A stretch of DNA of 40,848 nt from the IMG/VR virus record IMGVR_UViG_3300043609_000024, one strand, 5' to 3'. Source of the DNA: a virus. Both the position numbers and the translations under genes were made by a program. The notes beneath the pieces are model-generated. The model was not told the origin of the DNA, did not search any database, and saw nothing but the letters and a program-made list of their open reading frames with translations. Below, in pieces: positions 13,924-18,467 of this stretch. Every line of letters starts with the position of its first letter. Positions within the stretch are counted from its first letter, which is position 1.

Positions 13924-14310
13924 AACGGTTTAGTCTCGATTTGCAACAAGATACCAAAACGGGACTAGTCCGTTTCGGCCTCGGATTATCCGAAAAACAC
14001 CCGGTTCCATACGTATGATGCATACGACGGAACTTTTAGAAGGCCCTTTGCCGGGCTTTAGAAGAGCCCTGAGGGGCCTTACGATTGGGGGCTCCATATG
14101 CACCCCCTCTCAAATCAAACGCATGGGCGGTGAATTCACGTTCCGTTCTAAAATGCCGTTTTTAGGAATGTAACCCTAGATTTGGATCATAATCCTATAT
14201 CAGAACGGCCCTAAATAAATCGGGGCATGCGGGCCCTGAGGGGTTGACAGCGAGCCCCGGCCAATGAGAAGTCAGGGCTCTTGACCCTACCAACCCGAAA
14301 GGCCCTACCA

Positions 14311-15807
14311 ATGCTTTCCCTGAATACTCAAATCCCCTCGCATGCCCGTGGCACCATTCGCGCCCTTGTTAAGGCCCATACCTCTTGGCCCGCCTATCTC
14401 GTGGAAAAGGGCATCATCTCGGCAAAAGCCCTGAATTCAAACCTCTTGGAATTCGCCCTCAGGCATCCGGCCCTAACGGCCCAAATCGAAACCATCCTAG
14501 GCCAAAGCCCGCAGGGCTCGCAGGTGGATGCCCCCGAAACCCTCATGGATGATGAAACGATGGAAGATGCAGAACCGGCGGCAGCCTCGCAAAGCGTATC
14601 GGCCCCGCATGGCTATGAGCTTGACGGCGTTTTGGCCCCGGTGGAACAACTCATGAGCCCTCTTATGCGGCAGGAACTCGGCAAGGCCCTTGGGCCCGTG
14701 ATCGCGGCAGCCAATAAGGGGCCCGTGGAAATTGAACGCATTGTGGAAATTGAACGCATTGTGGAAGTGGCCCCGGGCGAAATGCCCAAGGCCCGCACGC
14801 TCCCCAAGGCCCGCAGGGACAAGCGGGTTACGGTTCGCACGCTCTTTCCGACACGCAAGCATGACGCTTATCTTGACGCGTCCGTGACGCTTTGGACCGG
14901 TGCGGCAGCCCCGGCCGTTGACCCTCATTACGTCGTGGACCGTAATCAGATGGCGACCATGCTAACCTCTTGGGAAAGAGGCGAAAACGTGTGGTTAGTC
15001 GGGCCGTCCGCGTCGGGTAAATCATCCATGCCGCGCTATGCTGCGGCAGTCACGGGACGGCCCTTTGTCTCAATCGAGATGATGAAGCAAACCGATACGG
15101 AAGCCCTTATTGGCGGAACGGGCTTGGTCAACGGTCAGACCATATGGGTGGATGGTTCGTTCACCCAAGCCCTGCGGCAACCCGGGACCGTGATCTTGAT
15201 CGATGAATTGACGCTGGCCCCTCCTAGCGTGCAGGCGATTATTCAGCATGCGGCCAGCGAGCATAGGTCCTTGACGCTCCCAACCGGTGAAGTGGTTCAC
15301 GCTGCGGACGGCGTGGTTTTCGTGGTCGCCGATAACACGGCCGGAAGCGGGGACGAAGGCGGGCTTTATGCCGGAACCAACGTTAGCAATGTGGCCTTGG
15401 TTACGCGTTTCGCTCGCATGATCCATATGGATTATTTGAGCCCGCAGCGTGAGGCGGAAGCCCTCGCGAACCACACGGGCTGCCCATTACCTGCAGCGCG
15501 GCATTTGGCCGATTGGGTGCAACAAGCAAGGCGCATTCCGACGCTCGCTGGCGTGGTTATCAGCATGCGCCAAATGATCGCCTTGGTTCGCATGATCCAA
15601 GATGGCTTTAGTTCGCAGGACGCCTTCAAGGCCACGCTCTCAAGCCGGATGCCGTCCGTGGAACGCGCGACAATCGACGGGCTGGCCGATCTGGCGTGGA
15701 ACGTGTCTTTTGAAGCCATGGTTCACGGCAAGGACGCAGCCCCGATTGTGACGCCGTCGAATTCGGCGGCAGCCCAAGCATTCGGCGACGCAACGAACCC
15801 TTACTAG
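14311..15807 (+). CDS. cobS: CobS-like / MoxR-class AAA+ ATPase
   Basis: Walker A is VGPSASGKS and Walker B is VILIDELT. The segment ADNTAGSGDEGGLYAGTNVSNVALVTRF matches the CobS signature NTxGxGDxxGxYxGT. The ATG at 14311 is preferred over the TTG at 14281 used by the ORF track. Confidence 0.8.
   Translation: MLSLNTQIPSHARGTIRALVKAHTSWPAYLVEKGIISAKALNSNLLEFALRHPALTAQIETILGQSPQGSQVDAPETLMDDETMEDAEPAAASQSVSAPHGYELDGVLAPVEQLMSPLMRQELGKALGPVIAAANKGPVEIERIVEIERIVEVAPGEMPKARTLPKARRDKRVTVRTLFPTRKHDAYLDASVTLWTGAAAPAVDPHYVVDRNQMATMLTSWERGENVWLVGPSASGKSSMPRYAAAVTGRPFVSIEMMKQTDTEALIGGTGLVNGQTIWVDGSFTQALRQPGTVILIDELTLAPPSVQAIIQHAASEHRSLTLPTGEVVHAADGVVFVVADNTAGSGDEGGLYAGTNVSNVALVTRFARMIHMDYLSPQREAEALANHTGCPLPAARHLADWVQQARRIPTLAGVVISMRQMIALVRMIQDGFSSQDAFKATLSSRMPSVERATIDGLADLAWNVSFEAMVHGKDAAPIVTPSNSAAAQAFGDATNPY
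14725..14766 (+). repeat. In-frame 18-bp tandem repeat (about 2.3 copies) inside the CobS-like gene
   Basis: GTGGAAATTGAACGCATT occurs twice in tandem, followed by GTGGAA. It encodes VEIERI-VEIERI-VE. Confidence 0.9.
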
Positions 15808-15837: not shown

Positions 15838-15866
15838 AAAAGGGGGCCCAAAAGGCCCCTTTTCTG
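15838..15866. terminator. Hairpin flanked by an A-tract and a T-tract between the CobS-like and CobT-like genes
   Basis: AAAAAGGGGGCC-CAAAA-GGCCCCTTTTCTGCTTT. The GC stem is 6 bp, extendable by A-T pairs. Confidence 0.45.
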
Positions 15867-15891: not shown

Positions 15892-17757
15892 ATGTCATAT
15901 ACTTATCCGGAAGCTCTGACCGCGCTGGAAAGCGTCGCAAACGATTTTATCAAGGTGCTTCGCCCCCGTGAAATCGCCCGCGTGCTTTTGGTTTGCGATA
16001 GCGCCGCGCAAACGGCGTCCGTGACTTGGGACGCCTATAACATCAAGGTGAACATGCCCGTACGCCCTGCGGCGTCCCGCATGACGCAAGCCGAATTCGA
16101 AAACTGGGTTTCCTATTTGCTTCACGAGTTAGGCCATCCCGCGCATACCGATATGGTGGCGTGGCAGGCGGCATGCCGCGACGGCGTGGCCCGCATGGTC
16201 AACGCGCTGGAAGATGTCCGAATGGAAAAAGCCCTTATCGTTTCAGGCATTGTGCCGAACGCTAAAAGCGTCCTTTCCCGCCTCTTGTCCCGCAAGATTG
16301 TGGAAGCCCGTTCCAATGGCTGGAAACCGAACGCTCGCCGCGAATTCGGGTGGACCATTTGCGTTCTAGGGCGTGCGGCCAATGGTTATGCTTTCGACGG
16401 TTCCGATTTGGCTTGGATCGACGCGCAAATCAAAGCAGGCGGGACGGTTCACGCCGTTTTGGCTTGGGCCTTGCCGGATTTGGCCGCGTGCAAATCGACG
16501 GCCGATTGTACAGCCCTTGCAAAGCGTATCATGGCAGCCCTTGCGGCCCCTCAGGTTGACGGCCCCGGTGGTTTCCCCGGCGAGCAGGGCGAGCAGGGCG
16601 AGCAGGGCGAGCAGGGCGAGAGCGAGCAGGGCGAGAGCGAGAGCGGGGCGCAGCCCCGCGAGGGCGAGGGCGAGGAAGGCCCGCAGGAAGGGCAGGGAGA
16701 GGGCGAGGGCGAGGAAGGCGAGGAAGGCGAGGGCGAGCAGGACGAACGCACGGACGGCCCTCCTAGCGAGACTGAAAGCCCCTCCGGTGAAACCGGAGGT
16801 TCTGAGGGCGAGGAAGGGGGCAAAGGCGGCAAGGGGCAGGGAGATGGAACCTTTGACGCTGATGAAAAGCCCGTGAAAAACGACAAGGACCTGACCGAAC
16901 GGGAACTAGCCCCCGACGATAGCGCCGACGAAAACCTCACGGGCGCGGAAGCGGTCAACGAACGCGTGGTCATCAACATCCTGCGTAGCGGGATTATCGG
17001 CATGAAGCCCAAGGATCAAGGCCATTCGCGCAACGGCCCCAATGCCGAACGCCTCAAGAGCGCGGCAGCCCGTGCTTCCAAACAGCGCGCCCTTTTGGCG
17101 CGGGCTTTGAGGGCTAACGATACCGACGAACGGGAAGGCGGAAAACGCACGGGACGCTTGAACCGTAGCGCGCTGGCCCGCGTCGCCGCAGGTTCGTCAA
17201 CAATCTTTGAACGCCGTGACGTTTGCGAGGGTTTTGATACTGACGTTCACGTCCTGCTAGATGCATCCGGCAGTATGGGCGACGCGGGCAAGATGTCCGC
17301 AGCCCTTGAGGTGGGCTTGATCGTGACGCAAGCGGCAGCCAGCGTCGGGGCGTCCTGCACAACGGAGGTTTTCAATTCCATAGGTTACATCCGGGCCGGG
17401 GCCCTTGCAGGCAAGCGCACGCCTAATCCGGCGGATTTTGGGGTCCTTGTGAACCAAGCGGACGGCGGCACGCCCTTGAGCCCCCATATGGCGCGGGCTG
17501 CCGTGGCCCAAGCGGCACGGGCCCCCGGCAAGCGTCGGGTTCTGTTTTTGGTGACGGACGGGGGCTGCGACTACGGCCAAGAAACCGTCAAGCGAATGGC
17601 GCGGCATCTTGAGAAAACCTGCGGAACCGTGATCGCTCACGTTTCGATTTTCACGGCCCTGCGGGGCTCGTTCAAGGCAGAGGTTCGCGTGGCCCCGGGA
17701 CAAGCCATTGCCGACGTCGGGCTTGACCATTTCGTCCGGGTCCTGCAGGCCCTTTGA
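15892..17757 (+). CDS. cobT: CobT-like VWA-domain protein with an N-terminal HExxH motif and an acidic G/E/Q linker (621 aa)
   Basis: The C-terminal MIDAS motif is DVHVLLDASGSMGD (DxSxS at 17260-17274). The acidic repeat linker spans about aa 230-310. HELGH lies at aa 78-82. The gene is paired with the CobS-like ATPase. Confidence 0.75.
   Translation: MSYTYPEALTALESVANDFIKVLRPREIARVLLVCDSAAQTASVTWDAYNIKVNMPVRPAASRMTQAEFENWVSYLLHELGHPAHTDMVAWQAACRDGVARMVNALEDVRMEKALIVSGIVPNAKSVLSRLLSRKIVEARSNGWKPNARREFGWTICVLGRAANGYAFDGSDLAWIDAQIKAGGTVHAVLAWALPDLAACKSTADCTALAKRIMAALAAPQVDGPGGFPGEQGEQGEQGEQGESEQGESESGAQPREGEGEEGPQEGQGEGEGEEGEEGEGEQDERTDGPPSETESPSGETGGSEGEEGGKGGKGQGDGTFDADEKPVKNDKDLTERELAPDDSADENLTGAEAVNERVVINILRSGIIGMKPKDQGHSRNGPNAERLKSAAARASKQRALLARALRANDTDEREGGKRTGRLNRSALARVAAGSSTIFERRDVCEGFDTDVHVLLDASGSMGDAGKMSAALEVGLIVTQAAASVGASCTTEVFNSIGYIRAGALAGKRTPNPADFGVLVNQADGGTPLSPHMARAAVAQAARAPGKRRVLFLVTDGGCDYGQETVKRMARHLEKTCGTVIAHVSIFTALRGSFKAEVRVAPGQAIADVGLDHFVRVLQAL
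16579..16821 (+). repeat. Coding low-complexity/tandem region (GGCGAGCAG units, GEQ/GE repeats)
   Basis: GEQGEQGEQGEQGESEQGESESG...EGEGEEGPQEGQGEGEGEEGEEGEGEQDE. The 9-bp unit GGCGAGCAG is repeated 4 times at the start. Confidence 0.9.
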
Positions 17758-17795: not shown

Positions 17796-17830
17796 AAGCC
17801 CCGGCCCCGCAAGGTGCCGGGGCTTTTGCT
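17796..17830 (+). terminator. Rho-independent terminator after the CobT-like gene
   Basis: AAGCCCCGGC-N10-GCCGGGGCTT forms a 10-bp perfect stem, running into TTTTGCT. It begins 39 nt after the stop codon. Confidence 0.7.
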
Positions 17831-18005: not shown

Positions 18006-18145
18006 GCGCGGGCCCGCAGGCGCGCAGGCGCGCGGGCGCGCGGGCGCAGGCGCGCGGGCGCAGGCGCGCGGGCGCGCGGGCCCGCAGGCGCGCAGGCGCG
18101 CAGGCGCGCAGGCGCGCGGGCGCGCGGGCGCGCGGGCGCGCGGGC
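18006..18145. repeat. GC-rich tandem array of 18 units (16 octamers GCGC[G/A]GGC or CCGCAGGC, plus 2 hexamers GCAGGC)
   Basis: Hand parsing covers exactly 140 bp. The 8-bp period is incompatible with coding. It lies between convergent operons. Confidence 0.9.
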
Positions 18146-18165
18146 GCGCACGGGGGAAAATCCCT

Positions 18166-18209
18166 TTAAGGATCGACCGGGTTTTCTATTAAGGATCGAC
18201 CGGGTTTTC
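18166..18209. repeat. Perfect 21-bp direct repeat TTAAGGATCGACCGGGTTTTC, two copies at a 23-bp period
   Basis: Copy 2 (18189-18209) is the stop codon plus the last 6 codons of the HTH gene. Copy 1 (18166-18186) lies just downstream of that gene. Confidence 0.9.
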
Positions 18210-18467
18210 CATTACGAGGCCGCCCAGTTCTTCGAGCGGCGCAGTCGCCAGATAATACTCTTTGCGCAGGTGATCCGGCACCGGCCCGTCGAGCCCGTGC
18301 TTCTCGAAGAACGCCATCGAACGCTCACGCCGTCTCTTGGACAGCATCTTGCTGGTCACGGCCCTGACAAGCTGGCGCGAAACACCAAAGTGCCTTCCGA
18401 CCTCGGTGGCACTGAACAGTTTGCTTTCGTACATCTCGGCGACCATTCCGGCAGTCCTATGATCCAT
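18189..18467 (-). CDS. Small HTH DNA-binding protein (92 aa)
   Basis: ATG at 18467 is preceded by GGGGGAGG with a 6-nt spacer. The HTH-like segment is FSATEVGRHFGVSRQLVRAV, followed by the basic stretch KRRRER. Confidence 0.65.
   Translation of the reverse strand: MDHRTAGMVAEMYESKLFSATEVGRHFGVSRQLVRAVTSKMLSKRRRERSMAFFEKHGLDGPVPDHLRKEYYLATAPLEELGGLVMENPVDP

Follow-up and report, generated by a model that had tools for sequence, protein, structure and literature searches.

What does a phage do with two adjacent genes that resemble those of the cobaltochelatase subunits CobS and CobT, when the CobT-like partner carries a motif of zinc peptidases? The question is raised by a 40,848-nucleotide stretch of viral DNA (IMG/VR record IMGVR_UViG_3300043609_000024; this whole stretch is called the window below), in which an open reading frame (ORF) at 15892..17757 on the plus strand encodes a CobT-like protein of 621 amino acids (aa). 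The protein consists of a zincin-like N-terminal domain (N-domain), a linker that is acidic and disordered, a shaft region and a VWA domain that bears a MIDAS (an adhesion site dependent on metal ions), and the gene of an AAA+ ATPase precedes it. The best-supported description of the two-gene pair is an AAA+/VWA motor-adaptor machine of the MoxR, CobST and NorQD kind. We lean, with modest confidence, towards a viral pair in which a MoxR-class ATPase works with a VWA/MIDAS adaptor whose zinc peptidase is probably active.

The bases cac gag tta ggc cat at 16123..16137 (plus strand) read H-E-L-G-H, residues 78-82, at the C-terminal end of helix 66-85 and within the peptide YLLHELGHPAHTDMVAWQAACRDGVARMVNALEDVRMEKA; a preliminary description of this locus had placed the motif and quoted its flanking peptide exactly. 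It had made the value of the motif depend on whether H78, E79 and H82 are kept among phage homologues, and they are. Forty homologues of the 621-aa protein were collected, and the three residues are invariant in all 38 N-domains of one alignment (A2). A search with the N-domain profile returned, at E<=0.001, the representatives of 2921 clusters (50% identity), and the best 147 of these were inspected: HExxH is present in 144 and HExxxH in 3, with N-x-[LIVM]-E-D-x-R-x-E found 22-30 residues after HExxH in almost all of them. In a conservation alignment of 133 sequences, which includes representatives of 132 separate 50%-identity clusters, H78, E79, H82, D108 and E112 are the sole N-domain positions conserved at 100%, followed by E107 and N104 (99%), P56 (99%) and R110 (98%); the nine best-conserved positions are thus the HExxH and NxxEDxRxE residues plus P56. 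HExxH was also found in 52 of 53 IMG/VR viral loci, though these loci had been retrieved by other motifs. The exceptional HExxxH form marks a small subgroup (P0141, P0142, P0172; L046) that reads HEVCGH or HEVLGH, with an insertion of one residue, and keeps the NALEDVRIE helix.

The second motif, N104-A-L-E107-D108-V-R110-M-E112 (16201..16227, plus strand), lies on helix 100-118, a candidate "glutamate helix" for the third zinc ligand. That the acidic residues of EDVRME might supply such a ligand had been suggested from the start, and this stretch proved to belong to the same conserved signature, because D108, E112, E107 and R110 are conserved alongside HExxH. The position of the presumed catalytic base, E79, is as constrained as both His residues, which is expected of a working zincin and not required of a docking module. 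Conservation also settles whether HELGH is a chance occurrence without function. A single HExxH is not rare, with 0.014 expected by chance given the composition of this protein, which has 10 His and 54 Glu, so that a lone motif is weak evidence by itself; invariance over the 133 aligned sequences, with the second conserved motif downstream, rules chance out, and we give it practically no credence.

The N-domain comprises residues 1-222 (15892..16557, plus strand), as assigned from an AlphaFold2 (AF2) model and from matches in BFVD, a collection of predicted viral structures. The N-domain model, made with 38 homologues, has a mean predicted local distance difference test score (pLDDT) of 93.8 and a predicted template modelling score (pTM) of 0.90. 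In this model one helix is followed by a three-stranded sheet and then by eight helices, with HExxH on helix 66-85 and N104-E112 on helix 100-118. Compared via the published description, this topology equals that of crystallised CobT_N, described by its authors as peptidase-M48C-like in a preprint that names neither HExxH nor zinc (bioRxiv 10.64898/2026.07.21.739949, 2026). The modelled topology fits a zincin-like (M48C-like) fold, in which an edge strand of the sheet flanks the cleft over the active-site helix; the fully conserved HExxH lies on an alpha-helix, and E107, D108 and E112 are candidate third zinc ligands by their modelled position on helix 100-118 and their conservation.

Searches with this model led to similar proteins at very different levels of significance. 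BFVD gave 14 matches at E<=0.001 (best 7.5e-11), the named ones being viral "CobT" or "VWFA", and further down weak matches to lethal-factor, IrrE-like and SprT-like zincins. The top Foldseek ranks in the PDB, all non-significant, were mostly zinc peptidases (ZMPSTE24, 4l7a, the M48 entry 3c37, SPRTN with prob 0.63, jannalysin with prob 0.51, and M61, M32 and ACE); the library, which extended up to April 2026, gave no CobT chain among the N-domain matches. A hidden Markov model (HMM) search with the N-domain profile against PDB sequences returned designed coiled coils alone, CobT_N being missed because it is too divergent for HMMER. In Pfam, the 621-aa protein has no match at E<=1 and its N-domain none at E<=10, and among the 38 N-domains single members gave weak matches to Peptidase_M48 (E 0.022), Peptidase_M60 and WLM. 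The likeness to M48 and minigluzincin peptidases (Ste24, HtpX, Oma1/BepA-type; jannalysin) lies in the layout, an HExxH helix after a small beta-sheet and a downstream helix with conserved acids, and not in a significant score for sequence (Pfam M48 in one member) or structure; in motif spacing and in the NxxEDxRxE signature, both peculiar to their own family, the viral CobT-like proteins differ from these peptidases. The comparison with zincin folds that the preliminary description had called for gave a topology like that of the M48C-like CobT_N, and Foldseek matches to zincins that are non-significant (E >= 0.6).

If the fold is that of CobT_N, is HExxH simply a feature of CobT? It had been suspected that the motif is foreign to the canonical cobaltochelatase subunit, and the sequences bear this out. 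A search with the N-domain of Shinella CobT, a protein 88.7% identical to Brucella CobT over the C-terminal half, returned 515 proteins, of which 120 were listed; all of these are PF06213-positive, many are named cobaltochelatase CobT, and none of the 120 has HExxH. They read RG[LH][GA]D[SA][MI]AL ... F[DE]AVEQARVE, and the viral protein reads SYLLHELGH where canonical CobT has the RGxxD[SA][MI]AL helix. Aligned by hhalign, A2 matches one canonical CobT at E 0.058 and a 45-sequence canonical alignment at E 0.21, both weak, and pairs NALEDVRxE with DAVEQARVE. The case for homology between the N-domain and CobT_N is made by intermediate sequences and by topology. Such intermediates are P0039, P0101 and the "porphyrin biosynthesis protein" of Yersinia pestis plasmid pMT1, which read RGFLD-HEVAH ... 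NALEDVFIE. Together with P0037, these HExxH-bearing proteins pass the Pfam gathering score for CobT (up to 2e-39), the intermediates also pass CobT_C (1e-114), and three of the 38 N-domains match Pfam CobT.

A joint MAFFT alignment sets RGxxD-S-M-A-L-R against RGFLD-H-E-V-A-H, so that H78 corresponds to S/A, E79 to M/I and H82 to R/K in the canonical proteins. The hhalign register of HExxH against RGxxDSMALR differs; we favour that of MAFFT because pMT1-type proteins read RGFLD-HEVAH, and in neither register does canonical CobT keep the His-Glu-His triad. Judged by these alignments, the viral protein is a divergent member of the CobT superfamily. It shares with CobT (PF06213 + PF11775; Brucella 9uka) the order of its domains, from an N-domain modelled as M48C-like through an acidic disordered linker and a shaft to a VWA domain whose MIDAS reads DxSxS; it also shares the conserved (A/D)(L/V)E(D/Q)xRxE helix and a neighbouring CobS-class AAA+ partner. 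It differs in having HExxH in place of RGxxD-SMALR and in reaching neither PF06213 nor TIGR01651 itself; a scan of NCBIfam gave CobT at just E 0.18. In the solved chelatase, R76 and D80 of CobT_N make salt bridges with the CobS small domain, and its beta-sheet touches CobN (bioRxiv 10.64898/2026.07.21.739949). These two residues are probably those of the RGxxD motif, and the contacts imply that the surroundings of the former active site serve as an interaction surface in the chelatase.

The remainder of the protein resembles the adaptors CobT and NorD. In the full-length AF2 model (pLDDT 83.4, pTM 0.75), the Gly/Glu-rich acidic linker (residues ~223-320; 16558..16851, plus strand) is disordered, with pLDDT <50 at residues 231-316. 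Tandem repeats of 6-9 bp (GGCGAGCAG and the like, at 16579-16732) code for it, and its length and sequence differ widely between homologues, which suggests slippage-driven length variation. Between the linker and the helices that precede the VWA domain, residues 321-350 have no secondary structure and yet a pLDDT of ~89-92; P341, in the "L-A-P" of this segment, is invariant throughout the family. The pre-VWA helices and shaft-equivalent segment follow (residues ~351-447; 16942..17232, plus strand) and contain R399-L-A-R-A-L406, of which R399, L402, A403, R404, A405 and L406 are nearly invariant among the homologues. The region of this RALLARAL stretch aligns with the Brucella CobT segment GRLANRLQRRLMAQQ...DSARL, which holds the shaft residues Q373-R413; model confidence falls to pLDDT 58-72 at residues 411-450.

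The VWA domain itself (17233..17754, plus strand) was assigned by Foldseek and conservation, with a MIDAS at D457-x-S459-x-S461 (nt 17260-17274) whose D457, S459 and S461 are invariant. The best Foldseek matches of the C-terminal half are the MIDAS domain of MDN1/Rea1 (1.6e-8) and the NorD VWA domain of NorQD complexes (1.9e-7). The A1 family profile, run against PDB sequences, finds CobT (9uka_G, 9e-33) over residues 241-604, including the shaft-equivalent segment. The CobT-type arrangement, in which a shaft segment leads into a VWA domain with its MIDAS, is thus found in the C-terminal half.

The partner ATPase is encoded at 14281..15807 on the plus strand (508 aa as listed, the true start codon being uncertain) and belongs to the CobS/NorQ/CbbQ/midasin (MoxR, AAA_5) class. 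It matches Pfam AAA_5 at 6.7e-16 (residues 236-355) and phrog_249 at 7.8e-48; a match to CbbQ_C is sub-threshold (E 0.0026, 18.4 bits vs a 20.6-bit cut-off, residues 391-471). Among PDB sequences its relatives are the midasin AAA modules (3.6e-36), NorQ (5e-15) and CobS (1.4e-11), and it is also related to CbbQ. Unlike CobS and NorQ, it has an N-terminal extension of ~200 residues (residues 1-235, 14281-14985), which is kept in closer relatives alone; an exact 18-bp repeat (2.3 copies, 14725-14766) within this extension encodes IERIVEIERIVE. The two genes belong together: among 68 IMG/VR viral loci, 46 had enough upstream sequence, and in 44 of these the gene directly upstream, on the same strand, is an ATPase homologue, which the other 2 have slightly further upstream. 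NorQ/NorD and midasin resemble the viral pair in being the best structural matches of the VWA/MIDAS half, in their strong sequence matches to the ATPase and in their motor-adaptor-client logic. They differ in that nothing in this analysis points to a peptidase-like HExxH domain in them and in their clients, which are NorB metalation and ribosome assembly factors.

From these parts a mechanism can be proposed, on the model of the solved complexes CobST and NorQD and of zincin chemistry. The N-domain would bind Zn2+, with H78, H82 and one of the acidic residues on helix 100-118 as ligands and E79 as general base; both together would make it an active metallopeptidase. The acidic disordered linker of ~100 residues would tether it to the shaft segment and the VWA/MIDAS domain. 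The CobS/NorQ-class ATPase encoded upstream would form a hexamer that grips the shaft, the MIDAS face would capture a client protein, ATP hydrolysis would remodel this client, and the tethered peptidase would cleave it, whether it is a host or a phage protein. In cobaltochelatase CobT, the zincin-like N-domain would have degenerated into a docking module. Extended to the whole family, the idea becomes more tentative. We consider it conceivable, at somewhat less than an even chance, that the viral and plasmid "CobT/CobS" pairs (the 2921 50%-identity clusters, pMT1/SSU5 included) are a distinct ATP-driven protease and no chelatase, and that cobaltochelatase CobT is its catalytically dead descendant, with the peptidase surface re-used for CobS and CobN. 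The corresponding architecture, in which a MoxR-class AAA+ ring holds the VWA/MIDAS adaptor and the tethered zincin cleaves captured host or phage protein, is put forward equally tentatively.

Several results weigh against an active peptidase. In the literature searched there is no experimental report of proteolysis by any family member, and the MoxR-VWA systems that have been characterised act as remodellers or as chaperones of metal insertion and not as proteases. Foldseek found nothing significant for the N-domain in the PDB (best E 0.6, prob <=0.63), and the direct profile-profile match to the canonical CobT_N alignment is weak. In CobT, the only solved relative, the domain purely docks the ATPase lid and CobN (bioRxiv 10.64898/2026.07.21.739949), and in the MAFFT alignment the CobS-contacting RGxxD directly precedes the HExxH position, so that an active site might be near the ATPase interface or buried by it. 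These points lend substance to the main rival, according to which the N-domain binds metal through HExxH without proteolysis, as structural zinc or in a metallochaperone-like way, or docks the ATPase lid, the machine being a MoxR-VWA remodeller or chaperone that acts, for example, in virion assembly or replication. The homologous CobST domain indeed docks on the CobS small domain and CobN without catalysis, and known MoxR-VWA systems (NorQD, CbbQO, CoxDE) are remodellers or metal inserters. A docking or structural role, however, needs no general-base Glu, and E79 is invariant in the 133 sequences; HExxH, a conserved acidic helix and an N-terminal beta-sheet form a catalytic gluzincin signature; and canonical CobT, in which the domain is a docking module only, has lost the His residues. 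We therefore regard this rival as rather unlikely, though as the one to be taken most seriously.

That the pair is a true viral cobaltochelatase CobS/CobT, which joins host CobN to boost cobalamin synthesis and in which HExxH is irrelevant or structural, seems to us improbable. It can draw on the homology to CobT and CobS, on the annotation of the relatives in isolated phages and on the hypothesis stated for viral cobST (PMC8651126). The scores, on the other hand, are far under the equivalog cut-offs, with 10.4 bits vs 759 for the CobT-like protein (TIGR01651, CobT) and 42.8 vs 558.55 for the ATPase (TIGR01650, CobS), and a chelatase role leaves unexplained why the viral family keeps HExxH, including the catalytic Glu, without exception when the canonical proteins lack it. 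CobN is a protein of ~137 kDa (bioRxiv 10.64898/2026.07.21.739949). The longest ORF in the window has 812 aa (portal), too short for CobN, and no corrin gene was found among the 12 ORFs scanned. Moreover, pMT1/SSU5-type relatives occur in ~1000 plasmids of Escherichia, Klebsiella, Yersinia and others. E. coli is without the aerobic CobN pathway, which one study has reportedly engineered into it. A chelatase role is thus unlikely on four counts, namely the lack of a CobN-long ORF, the sub-cut-off scores, the loss from canonical CobT of residues invariant here and the presence of relatives in enterobacterial phage-plasmids. The preliminary description, which saw in the module a machine other than a chelatase if the motif is genuine, is supported to this extent; the protein is still CobT-like, with relatives that pass the CobT and CobT_C models. 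It went astray in likening the protein to the DUF2201_N metallopeptidase and DUF2201 VWA-like family (PF13203/PF09967), which partners MoxR ATPases. The general architecture of that family is similar, with an HExxH domain, a VWA-type domain and a MoxR-class ATPase partner. In a direct Pfam test, nevertheless, none of the 38 N-domains matched PF13203 at E<=10, nor did the full-length protein at E<=1, three of the N-domains match Pfam CobT instead, and the C-terminal half matches CobT_C and PDB CobT. The link to DUF2201 was accordingly rejected, and we deem it very improbable.

Proteins of the HExxH type are present in isolated phages, where they are annotated as CobT or porphyrin biosynthesis proteins: SSU5 and its relatives, Pseudomonas phage nickie, Rhizobium RHEph10-like phages, Stenotrophomonas phages and Roseobacter CRP-810. 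Among plasmids, 1021 records have CobT-like genes, and most of these are non-mobilisable plasmids of ~110 kb from Klebsiella, Escherichia, Yersinia and Salmonella; in this plasmid set HExxH was confirmed by eye for pMT1 only. The SSU5 protein is 97% identical to that of pMT1 over the N-domain. The pMT1/SSU5 protein resembles the one studied here in its HEVAH and NALEDVFIE motifs, its CobT + CobT_C architecture and its place beside an AAA ATPase and replication genes. It differs in its length of 788 aa, in the reversed gene order, with the adaptor first, and in retaining the canonical RGxxD just before HExxH. A tblastn search with the CobT-like protein did not recover SSU5-type phages, and a scan of 185,579 species genomes for the host gave only 10 distant matches (in Sutterella, Burkholderia and metagenome-assembled genomes (MAGs) of Rhodobacteraceae) and with them no host assignment. 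PADLOC defence models gave zero matches for the ATPase or the CobT-like protein, and membership in known anti-phage defence systems was rejected for both.

The combination of an ATPase with a peptidase-VWA protein had been thought uncharacterised in phages, which turned out not to be so. A MoxR AAA+/vWA pair whose vWA protein has an N-terminal metallopeptidase was predicted computationally in group 2.2 jumbo phages, with a proposed role in virion assembly that joins chaperone function and proteolytic processing (Iyer et al., 2021, PMC7824862). The present phage locus has the same makeup, a MoxR-class AAA+ gene next to that of a vWA protein whose N-terminal domain is peptidase-like and contains HExxH. 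By its description, the jumbo-phage pair (ASV44728.2, ASV44729.1) is likewise a two-gene module with a vWA co-chaperone bearing an N-terminal zincin-type domain, whereas the genome here is of ~41 kb and not jumbo. Cyanophage cobT is reported to be often annotated "peptidase", and Liu et al. proposed that viral cobST hijacks host CobN (PMC8651126).

The window is a tailed-phage genome, with large terminase, portal, tail fibre, amidase, DNA polymerase and primase/helicase genes. In it the CobT-like ORF is the second gene of a two-gene plus-strand cassette between minus-strand blocks, with the terminase on one side and the primase and polymerase on the other. This inverted layout is kept in close relatives; in a second clade (~38% identical), polymerase, primase, ATPase, adaptor, terminase and portal are all on one strand. 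The position of the cassette at the junction of replication and packaging genes favours neither a host-takeover nor a morphogenesis role. Between the ATPase stop at 15807 and the adaptor start at 15892 lies a terminator-like, GC-rich hairpin (GGGGCC / GGCCCC; 15843..15859, no strand assigned) flanked by an A-run and a T-run, which, by dampening read-through, could determine the ATPase:adaptor ratio. A second terminator-like hairpin with a T-tract, recognised by consensus match only, is located 3' of the cassette (17803..17824, plus strand). Two repeat arrays, an 8-bp tandem array (GCGCAGGC, 18.6 copies) at 18006-18150 and a 23-bp direct repeat (2.1 copies) at 18166-18214, lie in the gap between the CobT-like gene and the minus-strand block of a 100-aa ORF and the primase. 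The repeats at 18006-18214 could be a regulatory or origin-like region.

Variants of the module were seen elsewhere. In one locus (L081, 1-3092) it is split into an ATPase (at least 403 aa), a 352-aa HExxH protein (P0135) and a separate CobT_C/VWA protein of 269 aa, and adjoins a Toprim-DnaB primase-helicase. Proteins of ~300 aa with HELGH and NGLEDPRIE, obtained in the search of cluster representatives, resemble this split form by length and motif alone. The arrangement is reminiscent of archaeal virus HHTV-2, for which a split cobT has been reported (PMC8651126). On a contig of a Rhodanobacter MAG (L082, 562-3490), a DUF3150 gene stands directly upstream of the HExxH-bearing CobT-like P0040, with a Toprim_3 primase downstream, possibly as a variant of three genes carried by a mobile element.

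The architecture was thus already known computationally, since Iyer et al. predicted it in jumbo phages, and the field holds two conflicting readings of it, a peptidase-vWA machine (PMC7824862) and a CobN-hijacking cobST (PMC8651126). What is new here is a numerical demonstration that the viral and plasmid family conserves nothing as strongly as the zincin signature, the systematic absence of this signature from the 120 listed true CobT sequences, and its link to the newly solved M48C-like CobT_N fold. The question lends itself to study in phages that can be cultivated, for example SSU5, Pseudomonas phage nickie and Rhizobium phage RHEph10. Phage and phage-plasmid "cobT" and "cobS" genes are routinely classed among the auxiliary metabolic genes for vitamin B12, and if the adaptor is an active protease, these B12 annotations and the ecological inferences drawn from them would be wrong for a very large gene family. 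A MoxR-class ATPase with a tethered zinc peptidase would be, if true, a form of ATP-dependent proteolysis unlike the FtsH, Lon and Clp types, and the N-domain of CobT would be explained as a peptidase fold that lost its HExxH on becoming a chelatase adaptor.

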